Source of the DNA: Mya arenaria
Taxonomy: Eukaryota
Length of the DNA: 64,000 nucleotides
Direction of reading: 5' to 3'
NCBI RefSeq assembly: GCF_026914265.1
Contig: NC_069127.1
Coordinates: 1,681,682 to 1,745,681, forward strand
Shown: in pieces, positions 9,166-64,000 of the stretch
How the letters are laid out: each line of letters begins with the position of its first letter
How positions within the stretch are numbered: position 1 is the first letter of the stretch
Program-made: the position numbers and the translations under genes
Notes under the pieces: model-generated
Database searches by the model: none
What the model saw: only the letters and a program-made list of their open reading frames with translations
Told to the model about the DNA's origin: nothing

Positions 9166-9410
9166 ACTGCCCCTGTTACACTGTACAAACAACTCATGAT
9201 TATATCGGTACATGTCGACATGCCAACATTCAAATGTTTAAGGTTTACATAGAGCTTTTGACCTTTTGCCCTATAAGTCATACTGTTAACAAGAAGCGTC
9301 CTCGATGACTAATGTGATCAGTTATTTGTTTCTTTGTTCGTGGACGCTAGTATAACAGTGTGGCTTTAACACCATCAACCGAAAACTGACTGCATTGCTT
9401 TGCATTACTA

Positions 9411-9640
9411 GAGACGTACTGCACTGTCAATGAAAACTGCACAAACGCCGTGGATGTGGCTGACGGTGAGAGGTGGCGGCTGTGTGATGGTGATGGCCCT
9501 GGGAGCTGCAACCCCAGGAAGGGTCGGCTCGAGGTGGAGTACCAGGGCGTCTGGGGCACTGTGTGTGATGATTCGTTTTACGGAGCCATCGGTACCATCA
9601 ACATGAACATTGCTTGCAGAATGTTCGGCTACATGGGCGG
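9411..9640 (+). CDS. penultimate coding exon of an SRCR-domain gene (first half of the SRCR domain: RWRLCDGDGPGSCNPRKGRLEVEYQGVWGTVCDDSFYGAIGTINMNIACRMFGYMGG)
   Basis: SRCR consensus (GRVEV, WGTVCDD, ACRQLG-like). Donor GG|gtacgt at 9641, phase 2. The 5' boundary (acceptor tactag at 9409-10) is uncertain; the open frame extends back to 9390. Confidence 0.55.
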
Positions 9641-9987
9641 GTACGTGTACAGTTCAGCCAGTTTAATAGGTCTAGATATACGCTCTTCTAGATACTGATG
9701 CGTTTAAAGACAATACTATTATATATACTTTACTGAATACAAGCAAGGTCAACCTCCTTATATTAAGAATACTCAATTCAAGTCAATTGTGATTCATCTG
9801 CACGAAAGAGTAGACTTCCATGTATATTTTTTTCCAGTTAATATGACGCTTAAAACAATAAATTTCAGAGTCTAAATTTACAGTGTTATTTTGGTATTAT
9901 CATAATAGCAATCTTACTTAAGTGTAATATCAGAGTATAATTCCATCAGATATGTCAAAGCATCTTATACCCGGATTTTTTTCCCAG

Positions 9988-10165
9988 AGCCGACTCACTA
10001 GCAGACGATTACAACCGTGCCTATTTCGGCGAGGGTGTGGGGACGATCTGGCTGGACGAGGTGTATTGCACGGGTACAGAGACACTGCTGTCCAGTTGCC
10101 AGAACATGGGGTGGGGCAACAACGACTGCGGTCACTTAGAGGACCAGGGCATTGTGTGCAATTAA
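9988..10165 (+). CDS. last coding exon of the SRCR-domain gene (second half of the SRCR domain, ..[41 protein letters not shown])
   Basis: Acceptor ttttcccag at 9986-87. The phase-2 junction restores a GGA codon. Stop TAA at 10163-65. Together with the previous exon it gives a ~113-aa SRCR domain. Confidence 0.6.
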
Positions 10166-12149
10166 ACAGGTGTCCCAGACATGTAGTGTCAGGAGACAAG
10201 GACCCTGCAATCTACATGCGCATGACCTGTATCTGCACGATGTGTTTCTAACTGTACCCGATGTACAACTACGTGAATTCTGGATGTCTGATGACCCTAT
10301 GTTAGTTTGGTATAGTTAGAAAGGTTTTTGTATGTAAAGAAAAAAAACGTGCGAAAAGGGTACCGTAAAAAAATACAAACAAGCATTTTTGGTTCTGAAA
10401 ATATTGCGGAATAGGTCATTTCATGTCTGCTGTCAGAAGAATTACTGAACCACATAATAGACTCTGATGACGTTGTCTATATTGTTCTTCTGGTCATTTT
10501 TACATATAAGTAATTAGCAAGCTAAATACTGTCACATAATAGGGTCACCAGATTTCAAATGTTAACATTATCGCCAATGGCGCATGCAATGACGAGCTTA
10601 ATTGTACATCGGATACTCTGATTGAATTCGGACATCTGGGGTCGTGTCTATGAAGTATCTTTTACATTCTATACATGAACTTGAATAAACGAGCCTTTCT
10701 TAATCATTAAGATATTACTTAGAAAACAACCTCAATAGCTGACACATGTCAGGAGGCGGACCTTTACAAAACCCCGCTTAAGTTGAAATTCTTAATGACT
10801 GCCTTTCTGCAATTTCGTTTGCTGTAAATGTAGGTTGTATTCTAATGAACATTATAGTTTTAAACTTTTCATTAGTTGTTTAATATATCTAAACATTTAA
10901 CTAGATGTATCGCGAATACGACCCCAGAACTCCAATCGTTTTGTATGAACCAAGAAATCAGTTTATAAAAAATGCACTACATGTTATCACAGATGTATTC
11001 TTCACAAAAACTAACCAGACCTGACGTCAATGGAGTTTTAGACGCACGATGATTCTTAAGCACGGATATTCTTTTTAAATTTGTGGTATTCGTAGTCGCG
11101 CATACGATAGTGGAGCACGTGCATTTTTTGATTATTCCGAAAATCTCGCACGGACTATATAATTTGATAACAAAAGGTTTTGACCGTCAGACTCAAACAA
11201 ACCGAGATCAAACAAAGATAAGATTTTTTTTTGTAGCAACAAGGGCACCAGAACGGTTTCAAACTCTCGTCTGTTTTTCTGAGTTTGCCAAGGGGCATTA
11301 CTCAACATTTCAATTAGCCAGAGTTATCTGCATTGCGACTGTTATTGTTATTAGTAAATTTCATATGAGTAGGTTGAATGGCTTTAAGTTTGTACAATTT
11401 TACAGTGATTCTGACGTATGTTTGTGACTATTTTCTTGTTACATATTATGCATACACTTTTTGTTGTTGTTGTGGTTTGTTTGCTTAAAAATAAATGTCA
11501 AAGTTAGAAAGAATTGCACAATCCCATTGTTTATACAATTTGAGTTTTAATTTATCATTTAAAGTTGTAAACATCATTAATATTACTTTGATTGCATAAC
11601 ATTTCGTTCAAATGTTGACTAAAAAGGAATTTATTACTACAATCAACGATATAAAAACAATTCCACGTTAAACAAACTTTGTACATGTTTTTCTTATTTG
11701 TCAAGCGAGATCAATCGATTTATGGTTTCGAGAATGTTTCAATAGCACGTTTTCAAGTAAATTAGAGAAGCAAAACTAAAATATGATAAGAAGTACTGTG
11801 TTTTGATTCGAGTAAAATGGATGTTTGCAGATTCGGATTTCATGTGGCACCAGCCGAGTAAAATCAAAATCTGCTGAAATCCATGAGAGTCAAATACGAC
11901 ATTTCGAATTAAAACGCAGAACAAATAAAAAAATAAGTATAAAACTTATGGCTAAAATCCCCCAGACTAAGTGTTTAAAATATAATAATTGAAGGATAAA
12001 ACGAGGGAAAAGTTCACCTACGACATTCAATCCAATGGATGAACGAAAACATATCTCCGCGGGATTTATGTTGTTTCTTAAGTGTGCAAGACGGTTTGCA
12101 CGGCACGGTATTATAACATAAAAGAATTCCACCGACAGTGCAGAACTGC

Positions 12150-43534: not shown

Positions 43535-43615
43535 CTCCTGCACCGTTTAACAGCAAGGGCAGTAATTCGGGACTGGGAGGATGGAATGCTCTCCCCTGAC
43601 AGGACAGACCATGAG
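43535..43615 (+). CDS. PARP4: PARP4 exon 24 (LLHRLTARAVIRDWEDGMLSPDRTDHE)
   Basis: Acceptor ttttctacag. Donor GAG|gtgggc at 43616. Human MIHKLAARALIRDYEDGILHENETSHE. Confidence 0.85.
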
Positions 43616-44287: not shown

Positions 44288-44389
44288 ATCATGAAGATGA
44301 ACACAAAGGACTTTATAATTGAGCTGAGCAAGGAGTATTCAATTGTGACACAGTTTACCAGCTTTGTTGCCATAGAGAAGAGAGACAAG
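44288..44389 (+). CDS. PARP4: PARP4 exon 25 (IMKMNTKDFIIELSKEYSIVTQFTSFVAIEKRDK)
   Basis: Acceptor gatttcag at 44286-87. Donor AAG|gtgggt at 44390. Human SLIIKLSKENSLITQFTSFVAVEKRDE. Confidence 0.85.
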
Positions 44390-44938: not shown

Positions 44939-45031
44939 GATGAGGAGAAGAGGTCAGTGGATGCGCCGGCGATGTCAGAGCTCGTGGAGAGGGAGGATGT
45001 GGACAAACTGCAGTACATGGGATATGAGGAG
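44939..45031 (+). CDS. PARP4: PARP4 exon 26 (DEEKRSVDAPAMSELVEREDVDKLQYMGYEE)
   Basis: Acceptor atgttcag at 44937-38. Donor GAG|gtatgg at 45032. This donor is duplicated about 12 times in the following intronic minisatellite. Confidence 0.75.
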
Positions 45032-45039
45032 GTATGGCT

Positions 45040-45730
45040 TGGCTGGGTTCAATGATATGAGGAGGGGGGCCTGGTGGGTTGAATCTAGGTTTTTTTTTCA
45101 ATCATATAAGGAGGTATGGCCTAATTGCTGGAATTTAGGGGCGTTTAATGATCTAAGGAGGTACGGCTTGGTGGCTGGAATCTAGGGGATGTTCAATGAT
45201 ATGAAGAAGTTTGGCCTGGTTGGGTGGAGATTAGAAGGTGTTCAATGATATGAGGGGTATGGCCTGGTTGGGTGGAGTTTAAAAGGTGTTCAATGATATG
45301 AAGAGGTATGGCCTGGTTGGGTGGAGTTTAGAAGGTGTTCAATGATATGAGGAGGTATGGCCTGGTTGGGTGGTATTTAGGGTTGTTCAATGATATGAAG
45401 AGGTATGGCCTGGTTAGGTGGAATTAGGGGCAGCTCAACGATATAAGGAGGTATGGCCTGGTAGGAAGGAACCTAGGGGGTGTTCAATGATATGAGAAGG
45501 TATGGCCTGATTGGGTGGAATCTATGGGGTGTTCAATGATATGAGGGGGTTTGGCCTGGTTAGTAGGAGTTTAGAAGGTGTTCAATGATATGAAGAAGTA
45601 TGGCCTAGTTGGGTTGAGTTCAGACGGTGTTCAATGATATTAGGGGGTATGGCCTGGTGGGCAGAATCTAGGGGATGTGCAATCATATCAGAAGGTATGG
45701 CCTGGAGGGTGGAATCCAGGGAGTGTTATG
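45040..45730. repeat. minisatellite with a ~57-60-bp unit (..TGATATGAGGAGGTATGGCCTGGTTGGGTGGAGTTTAGAAGGTGTTCAA..)n, about 12 copies, starting at the exon 26 donor; each unit carries a copy of the exon-26 3' end plus the GAG|GTATGG donor
   Basis: The repeat begins inside exon 26 (TATGAGGAG|GTATGGC) and propagates that sequence through intron 26. Confidence 0.85.
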
Positions 45731-45946: not shown

Positions 45947-46123
45947 GAGATGAAGCCTGATCTGGACTATGATAAGGAGATTGCTGCTGTGCTGACCAAC
46001 GTGAGACTTAACTTCATGTCACAGCAGAAACAGGTTGAGTTTCTCAAACATGGGTTCCAACTTCTTGAAGATGGTTCGTTCAGGGATAATGATTACGAGG
46101 CATGGCTACAGAAGAATAAAGAG
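45947..46123 (+). CDS. PARP4: PARP4 exon 27 (EMKPDLDYDKEIAAVLTNVRLNFMSQQKQVEFLKHGFQLLEDGSFRDNDYEAWLQKNKE)
   Basis: Acceptor tataccag at 45945-46. Donor GAG|gtttgg at 46124 (weak). Open frame of 59 codons. Confidence 0.65.
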
Positions 46124-46981: not shown

Positions 46982-47057
46982 CTTGAGGAGGTTTATGATG
47001 ATTGGGACTTAGATGAAGACTTCAACTTTGAATCGACTTTCATGAGAAAAAGAATGA
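46982..47057 (+). CDS. PARP4: PARP4 exon 28 (LEEVYDDWDLDEDFNFESTFMRKRM)
   Basis: Acceptor ctttctttcag at 46980-81. Donor ATGA|GTGAGT at 47058, phase 1 out. Confidence 0.65.
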
Positions 47058-47583: not shown

Positions 47584-47687
47584 GTCAGCCAAAGAAGCAG
47601 CCACTGATAAATGTGAATGTTAGAACTTTAACTGGGAAAACAGTGAGTGTTGATGCCTCCCCTCACTCTTCTGTGGAGGAGTTAAAG
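47584..47687 (+). CDS. PARP4: PARP4 exon 29: first half of the ubiquitin-like domain (SQPKKQPLINVNVRTLTGKTVSVDASPHSSVEELK)
   Basis: Acceptor ttgtttttttaag at 47582-83, phase 1 in, which matches exon 28. Donor AAG|gtaagt at 47688. NVRTLTGKTVSVD parallels ubiquitin IFVKTLTGKTITLE. Confidence 0.7.
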
Positions 47688-47689
47688 GT

Positions 47690-48900
47690 AAGTGTTGATG
47701 CCTTCCTCTGTCTACTGTGGAGGACCTAAGGGTGAGTGTTGATACTTCCCCACTTTCTACAGTGGAGGGCTTGAATTTGGGTTTTGATGTTTACCCTCTC
47801 ACTATAGAGGGCTTGAAGGTGGGTGTGTGCACCTCCCATCTCTCTACTTTAGAGGACTTTAATGGTGGTGTTGATGCCTCCCCTCTTTTTACTGTGGAGA
47901 GATTAAATGTGGATGTAGATGACTCCCCTGTCTCTAATCCCCTTTCTACTGTGGAGAGCTTGAAGGTGGGTGTTTGCGCCTCCCATCTCCCTTATCTATT
48001 GCCTTTACTCCCCTCTCTCTACTGTGGAGGGCTTGAAAGTGGGTGTTGATGCCTCTGCTCTCTCTATTGTGGAGGGTTGAATGTGGGTGTTGATGCCTCT
48101 GCTCTCTCTATTGTGGAGGGCTTGAAAGTGGGTGTTGATGCCTCTGCTCTCCCTATTGTGGAGGGTTGAAAGTGGGTGATGATGCTTCCTCTCTCTACTG
48201 TGGAGGGCTTGAATGTGGATGATGATGCCTCCACTCTCTATTGTGGAGGGTTGAAAGTGGGTGTTGATGCCTCCCATCTCTCTATTGTTGAGGGTTGAAA
48301 GTGGTTGTTGATGCCTCCTGTCTTTCTATTGTTTTGGGTTGAAAGTGGGTGTTGATGCCTCCCATCTCTCTACTGTTGAGTGTTGAAAGTGGGTGTTAAT
48401 GCCTCTCCTTTCCCTACTGTTAATGGTTGAAAGTGGGTGTTAATGCCTCCTGTCTCTCTACTGTTAAGGGTTGAAAGTGGGTGTTAATGCCTCCTCTCTC
48501 TATTGTTGTGGGTTGAAAGTGGGTGTTAATGCCTCCTCTCTCTATTGTTGTGGGTTGAAAGTGGGTGTTAATGCCTCCTCTCTCTATTGTTGTGGGTTGA
48601 AAGTGGGTGTTGATGCCTCCTGTCTCTACTGTTGAGGGTTGAAAGTGTGTGTTAATGCCTCCTGTCTCTATTGTTGTGGGTTGAAAGTGGGTGTTAATGC
48701 CTCCTGTCTCTACTGTTGAGTATTGAAAGTGTGTGTTGATGCTTCCCTCTCACTACTTTTGAGTATTGAAAGTGTGTGTTGATGCCTCCCCTCTCTCTAC
48801 TGCTGAGGGCTTAAACATGGGTGTTGATGCCTCCCCTGTCTCTACGCCACTCCTCTCTTTACTTTGGAGGGCATGAGGATGGTTGTTGATGCTTTCCCTC
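47690..48900. repeat. minisatellite with a ~57-63-bp unit (GTGGGTGTTGATGCCTCCCCTCTCTCTACTGTGGAGGGCTTGAAA)n, about 20 copies, in PARP4 intron 29; derived from the exon-29 3' end (GTTGATGCCTCCCCTCACTCTTCTGTGGAGGAGTTAAAG|GTAAGT)
   Basis: The array starts at the exon 29 donor and its unit is recognisably homologous to the last 40 nt of exon 29 plus the donor. Track ORFs 47717..48049 (+) and 48005..48277 (-) are artefacts. Confidence 0.85.
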
Positions 48901-49250
48901 TCTCTACTGTGGAGAGCTTGAACGTATGGGTCAATGGTTCAATATCTTCTCATGATGTTATCAAAGTTACTTTGAAATCACTGTTTGAAACAGGAAAATC
49001 ATATTAAGCTGTTTTTGTTTAAAAAAAATCAAGCATTGTGTTTGAATTTCTAAGAAAAATTGTGTGTTCCAATAGGCATGTCAGCATCAATTTATTTATT
49101 GGTTTAATGCTGGCCAGGCAGAAACTTGATAATCATGATACTATTATTCTGCATAAACATGACATTTCTTTTCTTGTAAAAGATAACTCCGTAATTGAAA
49201 TTTCTTTTAAAATAAATTGCAGACAAATTAAACACTATGTTTTTTTACAG

Positions 49251-49427
49251 GCGTTGATCCAGGATCGCGAGGGGATTCCTCCTGATCAACAGCGACTCAT
49301 ATACGCAGGCCGACAGCTAGAGAATGGACAGACCCTTGAGGACTTCAATATACAGAAGGAGGCAACATTTCACCTTGTACTGAGTCTACGTGGAGGACCT
49401 GATAATGCTCGAGGCACTGATTTGTGA
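49251..49427 (+). CDS. PARP4: PARP4 exon 30: second half of the ubiquitin-like domain ([58 protein letters not shown]); a possible alternative 3' end at 49423 via the GTGAGT donor that overlaps the stop
   Basis: Acceptor ttttttacag at 49249-50. Compare ubiquitin [48 protein letters not shown]. Stop TGA at 49425-27 sits inside GTGAGT (49424-29). The N-terminal part of track ORF 49038..49427 is intronic. Confidence 0.75.
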
Positions 49428-50519
49428 GTATTGGCTGTAAAGTGAGATTGTGCATTTTCGTCTTTGGTTCAATATATGTTGCATCACATGATTCTTGGCC
49501 TTAAAGTTTGGTGCCTTTATATAAAAATTGAAGTAGGGGATACACTTTGAATGAGTTTAACTACAAAAATAACCTAATGATATCTAATTTTTGCCCAAAT
49601 AATTGATTTTGAGCCAAAAATCATGTGTTGCAACAGACTCTGGTTGTGTGACTAGAGCTGAAAAAAACACTTGTTTAGCTCCGTCCTCATGGAAGATGAG
49701 CAGAACAGCGTGCAAATATAAGCTGTTCCAAAAATAATTATAATTATGCAATTAATATTATGATATTTTAAAAAAGCAAAATCACATAAAATAATTGTTT
49801 GATTTAAATAAAATTTCATTTTTTTTTCAAACTCTGTTTAAAAGGAGATATTTGTACCGGTAAGATCTTTTTGAAACCAACTGTGACTTTAAATAATTGT
49901 ACGGCATCGCAACATTAAACAATGATACTGTGAGCTGTTTTGTTAAATCGACTAAAACATGATTTTAATTTCAACTTTTATACAATTTAGAAAAGGTTTG
50001 CCAGAAAAATGATCAATTATGTTTTTCTGCTATGGAAACAATCTGCCCCTCAGGCATGGTGTATAGCTGGTAACTTGGTAAGCGGCATATTCTGCTTTTG
50101 CTAGTGCTCTTAGGTCGGATTTGCGATCTGAAATGTTAACAAAAGTATGTTAAAGATAGGACACATGTGTAGACCCGGTAAATGATTTTATTTCATCTGT
50201 GAAAGGTTGAAAACCTGCCAGTCCAGTTTGCATTATGTTTGAGTAATTAAAATGATATTTTAGTTTAAACCTTTAATCCAACAACCATTCTAAAATAGAT
50301 GGTAACATTTTAGTTTTACTACATGACAACTGAGAAAAAATATATGAACTTATGTGCTTGCTTGGATAGACATTGCTTGCTACAGGCTGTGTTGGCAAAA
50401 ATAAAAATGCCAAAATAAATAATAAGTAATTATTATTTAATGTGTGTGAGATGTCCTCTTTAGTTATAAAATATATACATTATAGATGCAGCATATCTGA
50501 CAACACTTTTCGTAAGCAG

Positions 50520-51400
50520 AGAAGGTAAGCATGTCCTGAAATCTTTTTCACCAGAAACGCTCGAGAAAACTACCCTCACACTATTTTCACCAGAAACCCT
50601 CTAGGACACTGCCTTCATCCTTTATTTACCAAAACCCCTCTAGGACACCATCACCCAATTTTCACTAGTAACCCACTAGAACACTGCCTTCACCCTAATT
50701 CCATCAAGGACACCACCTTCATCTTTTTTTCGCCAGAAACCCTCCAGGACACCTCCTATTCACTATTTTCACCTGGAACGCTCTAGATCACTGCCTTCAA
50801 CCTATTTTCACCAGAATCCCTCTAGAACACTCATCCTTATATCACCAGAAACCCCCAAGGACACTGCCTTCACCCTAATTTCACCAGAAACCCATCTAAG
50901 ATACCACCTTCACCCTATTTTCACCAGAAACCCTCTAGAACACTGCCTTCGCCCTATTTTCACAAGAATCCCTCAAGGACACCTCCTTCACCCTGTTTTC
51001 ACCAAAACCCCTTTAGAACAATGCCTTCACCCTGTTTTCACGAGAAACCCTCTAGAACACCGCCTTCACATTGTTTTAACCAGAACCTCTCTGGAATACA
51101 ACCTTCACCCTATTTTCACAAGAAACCTACTAGAACACAATCTTCACTCTATTTTCACCAGAAACCCTAGAGAACACTGCCTTCACCCTATTTTCACAAG
51201 AAACCTACTAGAACACAACCTTAACCCTATTTTCACAAGAAACCTCTTAGAACACAACCTTCACTCTATTTTCACCAGAAACTCTCTAGAACACTGCCTT
51301 CACCCTATTTTCACCAGAATCCCTCTAGAACACTGCCTTCACCCTATTTTCATCAGAAACTTTCTAGAACACCGCCTTCACCATAATTTAATAGTGAAAG
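50520..51400. repeat. minisatellite with a ~45-bp unit (ACCCTATTTTCACCAGAAACCCTCTAGAACACTGCCTTC)n, about 19 copies
   Basis: Direct tandem repeat downstream of the UBL exon. Confidence 0.85.
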
Positions 51401-52599: not shown

Positions 52600-53190
52600 T
52601 TTAATGGAAAGTAGACATTTTATAGACAAGTGAAAGTAGTCCCATCAAATTCTGACTTACCTGGTATCATTAGTTTACACATCCAGCATCATTAATTCAC
52701 ACGGCAGATATAATTAGTTCACACAGAAGCTATCAGTAGTTGACAAATCAGATATCAGTAGTTAACAGACCCAGTATCAGAATTTCACACACCTGATATA
52801 AAAAGTTCACATGGCAGATATCATAAGTTCATGCACCTGATATCTTTAGTTCACACAGCAGATATCAGTAGTCCACACAGTGGATATCAGTAGTCCATAC
52901 ATCAGGTATCAGAAGTTTACACAGCAGATATCAGTATTCCACACTACAGATATCAGTAGTTCACACAATGGATATAAGTAGTTAACACAGCAGATAACAG
53001 TAGTTCACACAACAGATATCAGTAGTTCCCACAATGGATATAAGTAGTTCACACAGCAGATATCAGTAGTTCACACAACAGATATCAGTAGTTCACACAA
53101 TGGATATAAGTAGTTAACACAGCAGATATCAGTAGTTCACACAACAGATATCAGTAGTTCACACAGCAGATATCAGTAGTTCACACATCA
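52600..53190. repeat. minisatellite with a ~21-bp unit (CAGATATCAGTAGTTCACACA)n, about 28 copies
   Basis: Direct tandem repeat between candidate exons A and A'. Confidence 0.85.
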
Positions 53191-53319
53191 GAATGATTTA
53201 AAATGATTTTTGATGCCTGTGAATAATAGTAAAATTGAAGGGAATAAGTTTTGTGTATGTAATGTCTCCAAATGAAGTAACTGTCAGTTTAAATGGTCAT
53301 TCCTATTTCTTCATGCCAG

Positions 53320-53408
53320 TGTTGGAACAGCGCTGTCCATGGAAGAACATTATTCAACATTGGATTATTCAAGATGTGGTTATGCATCCTTGGCTGAGCT
53401 AAGAAATG
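53320..53408 (+). CDS. candidate exon A': (S)VGTALSMEEHYSTLDYSRCGYASLAELRN
   Basis: Acceptor catgccag at 53318-19. Donor ATG|gtattg at 53409. Phase 2 in and phase 1 out chain A to B. It contains an in-frame ATG, so it could also be the first coding exon of a separate downstream gene. Confidence 0.4.
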
Positions 53409-53764: not shown

Positions 53765-53814
53765 ATTCAATGGAACAAAAGATGGATCCAGATGAACAAG
53801 AAACCTGGTCAGCG
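53765..53814 (+). CDS. candidate exon B: (D)SMEQKMDPDEQETWSA
   Basis: Acceptor tttttcag at 53763-64. Donor GCG|GTGAGT at 53815. Phase 1 in, phase 0 out. Confidence 0.5.
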
Positions 53815-54457: not shown

Positions 54458-54547
54458 TGCGAGAAACTACAGGAGGAAGTCTATGAAGAACTGTCTCCTG
54501 AAAGGTGTTTTGCTGAGCCGATTCGATATGATGAACAAGAAAGGATG
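54458..54547 (+). CDS. candidate exon C: CEKLQEEVYEELSPERCFAEPIRYDEQERM
   Basis: Acceptor cttttcag at 54456-57. Donor ATG|GTAAGG at 54548. Phase 0 to 0. Confidence 0.55.
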
Positions 54548-55118: not shown

Positions 55119-55337
55119 TTAGTGGCTTCAGATGAAGATTTGGATGAAGATTTGGATGAATGTATGTATGAGGAGGTCTATGATGATGTCAGATACATGG
55201 CAGCAAGCCCCAACTACTCGCCCACAAATCCTGCCTACTCACTGACAAGTCCTGCCTACTCACTGACAAGTCCTGCCTACTCACTGACAAGTCCTGCCTA
55301 CTCACCAGCAACTCCTGCCTACCAACAAAAGCCAAAG
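55119..55337 (+). CDS. candidate exon D: acidic stretch plus CTD-like heptads ([73 protein letters not shown])
   Basis: Acceptor tttcatag at 55117-18. Donor AAG|GTAATG at 55338, phase 0. Five tandem heptads Y-S-[PL]-[TA]-[NST]-P-A resemble the RNA Pol II CTD consensus YSPTSPS. The next exon would lie beyond the transposon-like block or off the window. Confidence 0.55.
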
Positions 55338-58195: not shown

Positions 58196-61086
58196 CTATT
58201 TGAAATACACATGTTTGTGTATTTTCAACAGATTAACTTTAACTTTGCTGAGTTCCTGTGTATTGAATTTAAAATGACCTCTTTCATTGACAAGTTCAGG
58301 AGCTTCTAGCTTTGAAATGATATGTTCTGTTGGCTCCTGAGAAACGTCTGACTTCTCAGGCCACACATATGCGTTTCCAGCTTTCTTCATATATTTAAGC
58401 CCATATTCTGTTTCAGATTTACTTGTAATTTCAGCAACGTAAACACTTATGGGTCCTTTTCTCGGTTTGAGCCCAACGGTAACAAAATCACCAGGTTGAA
58501 AGGCTGTATCTTGTTGGGATGTTGTTGCTGCTGTCTCTTCTATTTTTCTCCTCTTGGCTTTTGGTTGCTTGGTCTCCGATTTTCTTTTCAAAGTTATTTG
58601 TTTCTGTCCTTTTGTTTGTTCTTTGCAGGTTGCTTTAGGCTGCTCCTTGTTAGATGGTTGTTTCTTCTTTACATTTAGTTTTTCTTGGACTTTACTAATA
58701 ACATCAAGGTTTCTTTTTCCCCACTTATTAACTATGTCTACATTCTCACATTTTGATGTTACACCATTCACACAAGCATCACAGTAACAACTAAGTTTCC
58801 TTGAGTTCAGCTCATAGTCTTTACCAACAGACTTAACAGAGTGCAGCTTCCGTGTTCCAGTTAATGTTTGTGAATTTGTTTCTGGTCGGTTTCTATTCAC
58901 ATTTTCAACAAATACAAATTCTCTTCTCGACAGAGTGCTTTTTACAGTGTCCACTACTTCCATATTCAGAGTTTCTTGACAAAATTGGTAAACGTCTTCA
59001 GCATTACCAAGAACTTTCCTGTTACTTATTACAGCACGATAACAAGCATTCTTTACAGTTGCACCCAACCCATCACAGACATTCTTTCCATGAGACGTTT
59101 CAAAGTAGTTTCGAGTCATTTTGGGCTGCTTTCTGAGACTGATATCAGCAAACGCCTTTTTCCCCTTGTACTGGGCTGCACACCCATCAGTCCACTCGTG
59201 GAGTTCACCAATCTTCACCCCTCTGCTTTCTAGTAATTTAATGGCTTGATTCTCGAAGACAATTGCTAAATCCGCATCATGTTTGGTTTCTTCACTTACT
59301 CCAATGATGGCATGTTTTACTGTAACATCTTTGTCATCAAGACTTTCTTTATAGTAGCACATCATTGGATGTACAGTTGCCTGGTTTCTATCAAAGAACC
59401 CTGACTGCACTTCACTTTGGAAGACACATGCATAGTTCTCACTGAAATCCATTACCATGGCTACAGATCCCTTTGTTAATTTCTCTACACATACACCCAT
59501 TTGTTTCTGTTGCCAGGATGCTCTAAATGCATGCTCTGGGTACACCATCATGTCTTTCTCTAAAGCTGTCAAAAACACTTTGAAATCAGCTTCTTTGGGC
59601 ACACAAGAAACGCAGCGCTTTACTTTGTCATATTTCTTTATTTCAATGCTTTCCCATTGATACCATGACACCATCCCATCTCTGTTCATTTCTTCCATAG
59701 TCGCCAAATACTTTTGAAGGCCTTGTACTCCACATTTTTCACAATTTCTTGACACACATTTTAAAGATGGCTCTTGTTCATAGCTGCAGAATGTTGCATC
59801 ACTCAGACTCTTCTTATCAATCTTAATGTCTTCTGTCATGTCAGTCTCTTTTACAACTCGTTTCAATGTTGTAAGTGCTTCTACTTTCAGGGCTACATTA
59901 CAACAAGTCTGGCACAGGCATGACCGTCTGCTTGTCTCGGACACTTTCTTTACATTAACTGGTTTTAGTTTGCTGAATGATGTAAGTCCTATTTTATGAT
60001 TGGGGTTTCTTGTTTTGTATAACTTGTGTGTTTCTTCTAGTGTCATTGTCATCACATGTTTCTGTAGTGTTTCTTTCATACCAGTCTGAGTTTTGATTCT
60101 AACAACATCGCGTTTGGATGGCACCTCTCTACTAATTTCAGCACTCAGGTAGAACTCTTTCACTGATTGTTTCACATGATCACTTATCACATCACATCTT
60201 GTTTTTCTCTGTTTCTTTTTCCACCATTCATTTCTCATCTTCATTGTCTTGTAAGACACATTGAAATATTTACTAACTGTGATTTTTTGTATTTCCTTAG
60301 TACTGATTCACGTATTACATCATATGCATGTTTCTTTTCTCTGTCTTTTCGAACACCAATGTTTACTTCGGAAATACTTTCTTTCAAGGAATTCACTATA
60401 GCATCTGCTACTTCAAGTTTCTTCTTACAAGCTGGTGTCATTGTTACTCCTTGGTCAGAAAGTACTTTGGATGTTGAAGGTGACTCAATAAGCTTCTTTA
60501 AAATGGCGGCTTTCTTCTTTGGTGTCCTAGGCAGAATGCCTTTCACCATTTGCGCTCATCTGTATATTGTTGCACGGGATAAGTTACTTTTGTTCTGTCT
60601 GCTTTCTCCATGACTGTCATTTTCATCAACTGTGTTAACAATTGGAATTGTAGGAGACTTAAGTTTAATTCGCATTCTCCAGGCTTGTGTTCGCTTCACA
60701 GCTTTTTTCTTTTTTTTCTTCCAGAGCCGGTTTCTTACTCTTTTTAACACCAGGATCTTCAGAAGAACATGTTGTTTTCATCTTTTTTCTCTGTCTGTAT
60801 CTTTTCATTTCTTCAGCTTTTTTCTTTCTTAAGGAGGGTTTTAATTCAGGATCTGAATTGGCCATGAGTTTCACTTTCATTCGAGCTTCCTTCTTTCTTT
60901 CTGTGTCTTTCTTTTTGATTTCAGAATATTTTGTGGAGTTTTCTGTTTTCTGACGCATTCTCCATGCCTTGACTTTCAGCCTGTTTTTCTCCTTTTGCTT
61001 CTTTTCTATGTCTTCATTCTTTTCAGCATTCATTTCAGCATTTTTTTCAAGTTTCCGGGATCGCAGTGATGATTTTCGGCTCTCTT
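58196..61086 (-). pseudogene. transposase-like TE gene, main ORF 687 aa (58196..60259) preceded by Lys/Glu-rich N-terminal region; interrupted by two +1/-1 frameshifts (about 60700 in an A8/A6 run; about 60260) and one in-frame TGA (60556-58)
   Basis: Motifs: Cys clusters (CLCQTCC, CVSRNCEKC); MVMDFSENY; HEWTDGCAAQYKGKKAF; SHGKNVCDGLGATVKN. These would be compatible with an RNase-H-fold DD(E/D) catalytic core if the first, second and third acidic residues sit there, but the family is not recognised. The KAWRMRQK / QAWRMRIK motif repeats across the first frameshift. Confidence 0.5.
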
Positions 61087-61722
61087 CTGTAAAAAGACAT
61101 TCTGAATATTAATTAACCTTAAACGGTTGGGTTCAATGTATACCTTAGAATATTAATATATATGGTATATAAATCTTCATATAAAGACAGGTTTTGTGAA
61201 AAGAAAAACCTCAAAAGGTATAAATGTCCCTATATGGTTCAATTGTATTGTTTCTGTTCATAAAAATGTTTTTGAACATACTTACAGTAGACTTAGAAAC
61301 AAGTGGCCGTATTTTGTAGAGTCTGTAACCTGAGTACAAGTACAAATCAAATATTACTTAAGCTTCAATTCTGTACATTTAACAAGTATCCACTGTGTCT
61401 GTGATCTGTATATTATAACACTGATTGTATTCATTGGCATACACGCCAATCTTTATGTAAAAATATTTCATCTCGGCTCCGTAATAGGCTCCACAAAATG
61501 AAATTGTGTGTCATACTGTCATAGGATTTCCATTAAACAACCTGTTAAGACCATTTTAGTTTGTTATATGTTGGGCATGGCAATTTCAACAAATTAGCAT
61601 CACAACATGTGCATTTCATGTGGACAATTGCATTAATTCAGGGCATCATGTACAGACATATGGTTTTGGTTACGGACCCTACGTAACATAGCATGGAATG
61701 TTTAGATAAGGATAATACATAC

Positions 61723-63129: not shown

Positions 63130-64000
63130 ATACTTGATTGAATTTATTTCTTTACACTTTTTTTCCCAAATACTGGATTTCACTTGTCAAAATGTGGATT
63201 TCACTTCGCTTTCAGATCTATTTTCAATATATTTATCTAACTTCTTCATTTTTTAACCAATTCCATTTAAATTTTTAAATATAAACCGATGATAATGCCT
63301 TTTCAATTATTTGTTCAACATTTTTTTTTTCAAAATAAATGAGTTATGAGTGGATTTCACGTCTGGAAAAGTGGATTTCACTTGTCAAAATGTGGATTTA
63401 TCTACGCTTTCAGATCAATTTTAAATATATTTATCAAACTTCTTCATTTTTGGACCAATTCCATTTAAATTTTAAATATAAACCGATAATAATGCCTTTT
63501 CAATTATTTGTTCAACAAAAAAATAATTTGTTAAAAATAAATGAGTTATGAGTGGATTTCACGTCTGAAAAAGTGGATTTCACTTGTAAAAATGTGGATT
63601 TCACTTCGATTTCCGATCTTTTTTCAAAATAGGTCTACAACTTTCTTATTTTTGGATCAATTTGGATAAAATTTGAAATATAAACCCATTATGAAGCCCT
63701 TTCAATTATTTGTTCTATAGAAAAAATAATTTGTTAAAAATAAATGAGTTATGAGTGGATTTCACGTCTGAAAAAGTGGATTTCACTTGTCAAAATGTGG
63801 ATTTCACCTCGATTTCCGAAAAATTGCTCTAACTTCTTCATTTCTTGATATATTTCAATAAAATTTTAAATATAAACCCTTCATTAGGCACTTCCCAAAA
63901 TGTATACAAAAATAAAAATTACTAATTAATAAAACCGAGTTAAGAGTGGATTTCACTTCTCGAAAACTGGATTTCACCTCGATTTCCGATCTATTTTCGA
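63130..64000 (-). repeat. right subterminal tandem array (same ~190-200-bp unit in inverted orientation; truncated by the window end)
   Basis: AATGAGTTATGAGTGGATTTCAC recurs at about 63340, 63550, 63750 and 63940. It is the reverse-complement of the left array unit. Confidence 0.85.

Follow-up and report, generated by a model that had tools for sequence, protein, structure and literature searches.

The locus described here raises the question of whether an animal PARP4, the vault PARP, carries a domain resembling ubiquitin within its own chain and, if so, where in the chain this domain lies. The stretch analyzed (the window) comprises 64,000 nucleotides of Mya arenaria contig NC_069127.1 (assembly GCF_026914265.1, positions 1,681,682 to 1,745,681 of the forward strand), and its + strand carries, from ~24 kb to at least 55 kb, a PARP4 gene in which two exons encode a ubiquitin-like domain (UBL). 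An earlier note on this DNA had placed the UBL at the C-terminus of the protein. The comparisons presented here make it likely that the UBL is an integral, in-line part of PARP4, located after the VIT-VWA region and a linker of ~95 residues and before an acidic Ser/Pro-rich tail.

Exons encoding the ubiquitin-like domain and the PARP4 core

The UBL is encoded by exons E and F. Exon E (47584 to 47687, +), which reads (S)QPKKQPLINVNVRTLTGKTVSVDASPHSSVEELK, consists of the linker SQPKKQPL and the counterpart of ubiquitin residues 1 to 27 (INVNVRTLTGKTVSVDASPHSSVEELK), and exon F (49251 to 49423, +) supplies residues 28 to 76 followed by PDNARGTD. Exon E has the acceptor ttttttaag before GT and is entered in phase 1 and left in phase 0; exon F has the acceptor tttttacag before GC and is matched by the UBLs of orthologous proteins. 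Upstream of both, exon D (46982 to 47057, +) reads LEEVYDDWDLDEDFNFESTFMRKRM plus 1 nt and ends at a phase 1 donor (TGA followed by GTGAGT). The D-E junction is in phase 1 and the E-F junction in phase 0, all of the splice sites are canonical GT-AG sites, and the frame is unbroken from D to F, which bears out the claim of the earlier note that the domain is joined in phase 1 to PARP4 exons. Neither E nor F contains an in-frame ATG, and a stop codon in the same frame, TAA (47580-82), immediately precedes exon E, so the UBL could not be translated without an upstream exon.

Spliced together, exons E and F encode SQPKKQPL and then a 76-residue domain that matches the Pfam ubiquitin profile PF00240 over its full length (positions 1 to 72 of 72, E = 5.4e-26, 90.6 bits with a cut-off of 25.4). 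By BLASTP, 48/76 of its residues are identical to those of ubiquitin (63%, 86% positives, gapless, E = 8e-39), close to the ~60% that had been estimated beforehand, and the domain would be expected to adopt the beta-grasp fold. TLTGKT, a block of 19 residues, and LRGG are kept, and Pro directly follows the GG (LRGGP), as the earlier note had read. The features of a conjugatable ubiquitin are lacking, as the domain is flanked by other sequence on both sides, its GG is followed by Pro, and 28/76 residues are changed, including K6R, K29L, K33R, K48R, and R72S. The N-terminal flank of the domain in exon E (PKKQ..NVNVRTLTG) shows a likeness to Plakobranchus PKQGFGNVNIRTLTG.

The window is eukaryotic and intron-rich, with ~36% G+C, and the remainder of the gene was delimited on the + strand by tblastn with Pfam-annotated homologues, which places BRCT-like exons at 24.3-25.1 kb, helical and catalytic exons at 28.9-34.4 kb, VIT exons at 35-37.7 kb, and VWA exons at 38.9-40.6 kb. 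This is the domain order of the clade 5 PARP4/vPARP proteins (BRCT, mid-protein PARP, VIT, and vWA). The best PDB match of the catalytic segment is human PARP4 residues 409-565 (E = 5e-43), and the H-Y-E residues, all of which the earlier note had listed as present, align with those of human PARP4 (LLYHATK/LLHGSP, GSGIYFA/GSGIYFS, and DDEFVVY/DDEFVVY). A conserved post-VWA block, found by tblastn at 42.1-45.0 kb (+), aligns with human PARP4 residues 1123-1251 (E = 3e-25). Within it, the exon LLHRLTARAVIRDWEDGMLSPDRTDHE (43535 to 43615, +) matches the Pan PARP4-like protein P0146 by tblastn, and the human PARP4 alignment starts there at residue 1123; exon A (IMKMNTKDFIIELSKEYSIVTQFTSFVAIEKRDK; 44288 to 44389, +) is conserved from human to molluscs and is 85-88% identical at the loci L001-L005; and exon B (DEEKRSVDAPAMSELVEREDVDKLQYMGYEE; 44939 to 45031, +) aligns with human VSELIAKEDVDFLPYM and with relatives. 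On these alignments, the gene is identified as the PARP4 (vault PARP, clade 5) of a mollusc-like invertebrate. No tblastn match to the MVP-interaction domain was obtained in the window or the compared loci with a human query, and the gene probably extends beyond base 64000 of the window, the Sinanodonta orthologue being 162 kb in length.

Between exon B and exon D lies the linker exon C (EMKPDLDYDKEIAAV...WLQKNKE; 45947 to 46123, +), which runs from phase 0 to phase 0 with canonical splice sites and an open frame. Homology searches with exon C gave no clear homologue, and its location is that of a helical, 14-3-3-like linker in orthologues. The linker before the UBL in P0373 (1002-1044), P0390 (~195-245), and P0244 has a match to the 14-3-3 C-terminal helices (AFDSSIAELDCLSEESY; Pfam 14-3-3 E = 1.7e-4), and in the molluscs it is the first helices of 14-3-3 that the linkers resemble. 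A 14-3-3 domain, now degenerate, may have been in place before the UBL was added behind it.

The same architecture in other PARP4 proteins

A homologue search with the UBL in the query returned polyubiquitins only. The PARP4-specific part without the UBL was used as the query in an HMMER scan of 1.84 billion representative proteins, which returned PARP4s of up to 2500 residues; 166 PARP4 proteins were searched with the window UBL, and later 180 proteins were searched with a UBL profile. A word-indexed protein database gave fragments of at most 611 residues, none of which covered exon C or exon D. The UBL is present in 8/166 PARP4 representatives, 70-130 residues after the FTSFVAIEKR...DVDxLPYM block, and four of the eight clusters are those of Mytilus coruscus, Sinanodonta woodiana, Biomphalaria glabrata, and Plakobranchus ocellatus. 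By Pfam, the full-length UBL-bearing orthologues read BRCT-PARP-VIT-VWA-ubiquitin. In the 25-kb genomic contig L009, the PARP, VIT, and VWA domains, the UBL, and the tail form one unbroken open reading frame (ORF) of 4311 nt, which shows the fusion there without any splicing inference, and P0390 holds the conserved block and the UBL within one ORF of a 1.6-kb contig. The occurrence of the UBL at the same position in eight PARP4s, together with the single ORF of L009, upholds the earlier statement that the window UBL is not a neighboring ubiquitin gene, and these sequence comparisons show the UBL within PARP4 to be a conserved architecture in bivalves, gastropods, and some organisms with compact genomes.

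The mollusc proteins (Sinanodonta KAL3858028.1, Biomphalaria A0A2C9KRG3, Plakobranchus GFO43316.1, and Mytilus coruscus CAC5400317-19) share with the window the architecture and the UBL position, and likewise carry LRGGP or LRGG; their tail is acidic and Ser/Pro-rich, with heptads like those of the RNA polymerase II (Pol II) C-terminal domain (CTD). However, the identity of their UBLs to that of the window is only 42-57%, the intron that interrupts the UBL after residue 27 in the window lies near residue 60 in Mytilus and is missing in Plakobranchus, and the linker exons C and D of the window show no recognizable conservation in them. LRGGP occurs in the window and in 5/8 orthologue clusters (Mytilus, Sinanodonta, P0378, P0381, and P0390), whereas Biomphalaria has GGL, Plakobranchus has GGG, and P0373 has RGS. 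In the alignment of the nine PARP4 UBLs, with the window counted, 7/9 have a residue other than lysine, mostly a hydrophobic one, at the position of K29, and the positions of Leu8, Ile44, His68, and Val70 are kept hydrophobic or His.

An LRGG that is intact in the window and most orthologues is what a processed fusion precursor like UBA52, RPS27A, or polyubiquitin would also show, a cut after the GG splitting the body with its UBL from the tail. Such processing is very unlikely here. Pro follows the GG in 6/9 sequences, and the ubiquitin-Pro bond is the known exception to cleavage: ubiquitin-Pro fusions are left uncut by deubiquitinases, Pro after Gly76 being the one residue that blocks removal (PMC9703124). 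In addition, the domain persists in P0373, where RGG is changed to RGS, and the N-terminus of the UBL is not free, so the release of free ubiquitin would be impossible. A stable built-in UBL, which the earlier note had preferred to a processed fusion, would thus be the better reading of the recurrent GGP, and the conserved GG-Pro together with the resistance of ubiquitin-Pro fusions supports indirectly the view that the UBL stays in the mature polypeptide.

The search among other invertebrate PARP4s that the earlier note had called for thus recovered eight clusters, including bivalves and gastropods, and also showed the limits of the distribution. The UBL was not detected in the PARP4 sequences of Branchiostoma, a crinoid, and a sea urchin and is absent from the human and Pan sequences examined. 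An N-terminal fragment of actin (~residues 5-72) follows the conserved block in the tail of many invertebrate PARP4s, including those of Nematostella, Hydra, Crassostrea gigas, Mytilus edulis, and Macrostomum; it is present at the loci L006 (11249-12701), L007 (12018-12457), and L008 (1337-1793) and in the proteins P0264, P0273, P0284, P0291, and P0397, and none was found in the window. Mytilus species appear to have both the UBL and the actin kinds, as paralogues. The relatives without a UBL and the actin-bearing loci indicate that the UBL of PARP4 is not universal. The pairwise identities of the UBLs are star-like around ubiquitin, which is compatible with one ancient capture or several; the shared position and the GGP, taken without a tree, favor a single origin.

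The end of exon F and the probable tail exons downstream

The orthologues, the bases that follow exon F, and tail-like exons 4-6 kb downstream speak against a C-terminal placement of the UBL. The chain extends 100-900 residues beyond the UBL in 7/8 orthologues. In Mytilus, >100 tail residues share an exon with the last part of the UBL. The Sinanodonta protein has the order BRCT-PARP-VIT-VWA-UBL, followed by a run of acidic residues, YSPTSPSYSPLSP heptads, a part rich in Arg and Ser, and a C-terminal region of helical appearance, which by eye resembles the human MVP-interaction domain and gave no match in Pfam; PF26156 was not reported by Pfam in any orthologue tail scanned. The Plakobranchus model stops at a GTAAAA donor, four codons past its GGG, beside a gap in the assembly. 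Both SPAYAPTSPAYAPTSPVYSPTSP heptads and a weak precomputed PARP4_MVP-ID (PF26156) annotation are present in the model that comes next on that strand; judged from these sequences, the C-terminal UBL of Plakobranchus is an artefact of a truncated model. PARP4 is split into two adjacent models in both Mytilus coruscus (L012 1-941 and 2001-37212) and Plakobranchus (L013 10001-39623 and 47411 onward), and such split annotation leaves the UBL in a "ubiquitin-like domain-containing" protein or at an artificial C-terminus.

In the window, the donor GTGAGT (49424-29) directly follows exon F and overlaps the TGA at 49425-27, and the end of the domain reported by the earlier note, 49429, falls inside this hexamer. 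Because a phase 2 intron that begins with GTGAGT always reads xxG TGA, a stop at 49425-27 is expected from read-through. Farther downstream on the + strand, three exons resemble parts of the orthologue tails: X1 (SMEQKMDPDEQETWSA; 53765 to 53814), with a phase 1 acceptor; X2 (CEKLQEEVYEELSPERCFAEPIRYDEQERM; 54458 to 54547), with EEVYEE; and X3 (55119 to 55337), with an acidic run, EEVYDDV, and four copies of SPAYSLT, which are heptads like those of the Pol II CTD. The three exons chain in phase 0 with strong splice sites, and exon D is able to splice in frame straight to X1. X3 matches Pfam PF05001 (E = 4e-5) and the RPB1 CTD in PDB and contains a 21-bp repeat at 55224-55322. The motif EEVY(D/E)(D/E) occurs three times, in exon D, X2, and X3, and the orthologue tails contain motifs like it. 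The orthologue tails, the overlap of GTGAGT with TGA, and the tail motifs lead us to assign X1-X3 to the PARP4 tail and to place the UBL inside the tether as an internal module; the apparent stop is probably intron read-through, with the protein continuing into the downstream exons.

Several observations weigh against an internal UBL that is joined in this way to the tail. Exon F leaves in phase 2 and X1 accepts in phase 1, so direct joining is impossible, and a scan for exons that bridge F to X1 or X2 gave weak candidates only. A candidate from the splice and phase scan, (F)VGTALSMEEHYSTLDYSR at 53320 to 53375 (+), is entered in phase 2 and left in phase 1 and would join the F and X1 frames; it has a strong acceptor, a weak donor (GTGGTT), and no homology support. 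The stop at 49425-27 is possibly real, with an AATAAA 380 nt downstream (49807). Exons C and D had no homologue in the searches made, and the loci L006-L008 have the actin fragment where the UBL would be. The loci L001-L005, from the closest available genomes, with exon A 85-88% identical, show no UBL within 10 kb downstream, although the long introns make this absence uninformative; in these loci, exons A and B are fused, and nothing like exons C-F or X1-X3 is present within the same 10 kb.

These observations bear on whether exon F is the last coding exon, constitutive or alternative, with TGA 49425-27 as a real stop and a protein that lacks the tail and the vault-docking part. The in-frame stop nine codons past the GG, the AATAAA at 49807, and the failure of the scan to produce a convincing phase 2 continuation exon all fit such an ending, and the ability of D to splice in frame to either E or X1 is the layout expected of alternative 3' ends. 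The exon E acceptor (AAG) is weaker than that of X1, and the annotations of Nematostella and Hydra contain many PARP4 isoforms. However, a genuine stop would fall inside a GTGAGT about 1 in 64 times by estimate, whereas a phase 2 GTGAGT always gives one. The UBL and the tail are one polypeptide in 7/8 orthologues, L009 and Mytilus having no intron there, and the sole apparent C-terminal case, that of Plakobranchus, is a truncated model. Exon F is unlikely to be terminal; a UBL-terminated isoform could still exist alongside the form with the tail, as could one in which D is spliced to X1 and the UBL exons are skipped.

The same layout has a second consequence, since E and F would sit in a 6.7-kb intron if D splices to X1. 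Together with the lack of a UBL within 10 kb in the three closest genomes, this is the evidence for an independent ubiquitin-like gene, or a ubiquitin pseudogene in decay, lying inside an intron of PARP4 and matching the phase of exon D by coincidence. The missing ATG in both exons and the stop directly upstream of E argue against such an insertion, as do the frame that is intact despite 37% divergence, the 86% positives, and the two canonical splice sites. As the UBL also lies inside the PARP4 ORFs of other species, at the same position and with GGP, we regard a nested gene as extremely improbable and retain the UBL as a module within PARP4.

Heptads like those of X3 are present in the PARP4 tails of Plakobranchus, Sinanodonta, and Sycon, and Pol II CTD-like heptads extend from sponge to molluscs (P0269/P0418 of Sycon, P0329, P0348, P0356, P0285, and L013 at ~48.3 kb). 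Such heptads have the look of a CTD mimic that is conserved in a vault protein of the cytoplasm, and no description of CTD-like heptads in PARP4 tails was found in the literature. When compared by eye, exon D and X3 match at 20/23 nucleotides around the EEVY motif, which suggests an exon duplication within the PARP4 tail.

The introns of the gene are rich in minisatellites. The intron within the UBL contains, by Tandem Repeats Finder and inspection of the sequence, 45-bp units at 47643-47936 and 19 42-bp units at 48012-48841 (+); the first 45-bp unit is the final 45 nt of exon E, and every unit has a decoy donor. The 49/97-bp array at 45047-45713, after exon B, repeats GATATGAGGAG followed by GTATGG, with a decoy donor in all copies. 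Intronic minisatellites of this kind, in the window and in L012 (2001-2471), are seeded by the exon just before them, from its 3' end together with its donor, and the M. coruscus model opens with four tandem copies of an exon plus the start of its intron, seemingly by a process like that of the window minisatellites. Two large minisatellites lie between the UBL and the tail exons, one of 39 bp x 22 (50545-51389) and one of 22 bp x 24 (52665-53192). The 39-bp repeat was considered as a coding sequence, being open in several frames, and rejected because the frame switches between units; it is treated as intronic. A likeness of P0259 to exon D ("FKRM") was likewise rejected as intron read-through in L006. 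On the - strand, a 703-residue ORF (58199-60307) and an adjacent Lys/Glu-rich ORF (60668-61108), neither of which matches Pfam, probably belong to a transposable element in a PARP4 intron. Upstream of PARP4, ORFs at 9390-10250 (+) with the SRCR-like sequence GRLEVEYQGVWGTVCDD point to another gene, of the scavenger-receptor cysteine-rich type.

Known systems and the proposed role of the domain

The published domain map of human PARP4 contains no UBL, as the earlier note had stated, and shows the ITIH-like region and the MVP-interaction domain separated by a long disordered linker, a tether that links the enzyme body to the vault-docking domain (PMC10450202). Human PARP4/vPARP (PDB 9bw6, 9bw7, and 8swy) shares with the window gene the BRCT domain, the ADP-ribosyltransferase domain with H-Y-E, the VIT and vWA domains, and the post-vWA block. 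It also resembles the window gene in having a long linker after the ITIH-like region; whereas the human linker lacks a UBL, that of the window has one ~95 residues after the conserved block. The vPARP clade was listed without a ubiquitin domain by Citarelli et al. (2010). Passages of Perina et al. (2014, PMC4245714) describe clade 5 PARPs with appended actin and 14-3-3 and, in Acanthamoeba, with ubiquitin-related domains; the principle common to those proteins and the window gene is an extra module placed after the VIT-vWA region of a PARP4-like core. The same passages contain no ubiquitin-family domain in an animal PARP4, no GG-Pro junction, and no position of the add-ons with respect to the vault-docking domain. 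The novelty of the fusion is lessened. No paper that describes a ubiquitin domain in an animal PARP4, or these mollusc UBL-PARP4 proteins, was found, but clade 5 add-ons were described in passages of the 2014 paper, and the architecture is present, though undescribed, in public mollusc records, of which the window is one further member. The UniProt name of the M. coruscus product is "Ubiquitin-like domain-containing protein."

Built-in, unconjugated ubiquitin folds serve as binding surfaces in Rad23, ubiquilin/Dsk2, parkin, OASL, and SF3A1, and integral UBLs of this type usually have 20-35% identity to ubiquitin and, for the most part, no LRGG. The window UBL is also built into a larger protein, but with its 63% identity and its retained LRGG it resembles a captured ubiquitin. 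The Gly76-Pro junction is shared with substrates of ubiquitin fusion degradation (UFD), such as Ub-Pro-beta-gal, in which the degradation of the non-removable fusion depends on two lysines of the ubiquitin moiety, K29 and K48 (PMC9703124). In those substrates, ubiquitin is N-terminal and K29 and K48 are needed, whereas the window UBL is internal and has K29L and K48R; the properties of a UFD-type degron are lacking, which makes such a role unlikely.

We propose that the Gly-Gly-Pro junction would prevent the removal of the UBL module by deubiquitinases. The recognition patch Leu8/Ile44/His68/Val70 is kept and Lys29 and Lys48 are lost, so the domain would avoid being read as a fusion degron and may serve proteins with ubiquitin-binding domains as a permanent docking site that resembles mono-ubiquitin, held on the flexible tether of PARP4. 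We hold this mechanism, a non-cleavable ubiquitin-like docking module on a tether, tentatively and with slightly less than even confidence. The resistance to cleavage, the binding partners, and a link to the vault or to ADP-ribosylation would follow from the architecture by inference, as would the coupling to the proteasome or UBL-receptor pathways proposed in the earlier note. It is also conceivable, though quite doubtful, that the UBL is one of several fragments of hub proteins (actin, CTD heptads, and 14-3-3-like helices) that act as baits in the disordered tether of invertebrate PARP4, either as integrated decoys that sense pathogen effectors directed at ubiquitin, actin, or the CTD or as handles that draw natural partners into the vault lumen beside an ADP-ribosyltransferase, and that the use of exons E and F may switch between a UBL-terminated and a tethered form.

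The value of the finding is tempered by the presence of the architecture in public mollusc records and by the lack of a UBL in the vertebrate PARP4s examined (human and Pan). With the UBL-bearing PARP4s, animals contribute a case to the increasing number of links that connect ADP-ribosylation with ubiquitin. A UBL on the tether would provide a concrete handle on which ubiquitin-binding proteins are recruited, on ADP-ribosylation in cis, and on access to the vault lumen.

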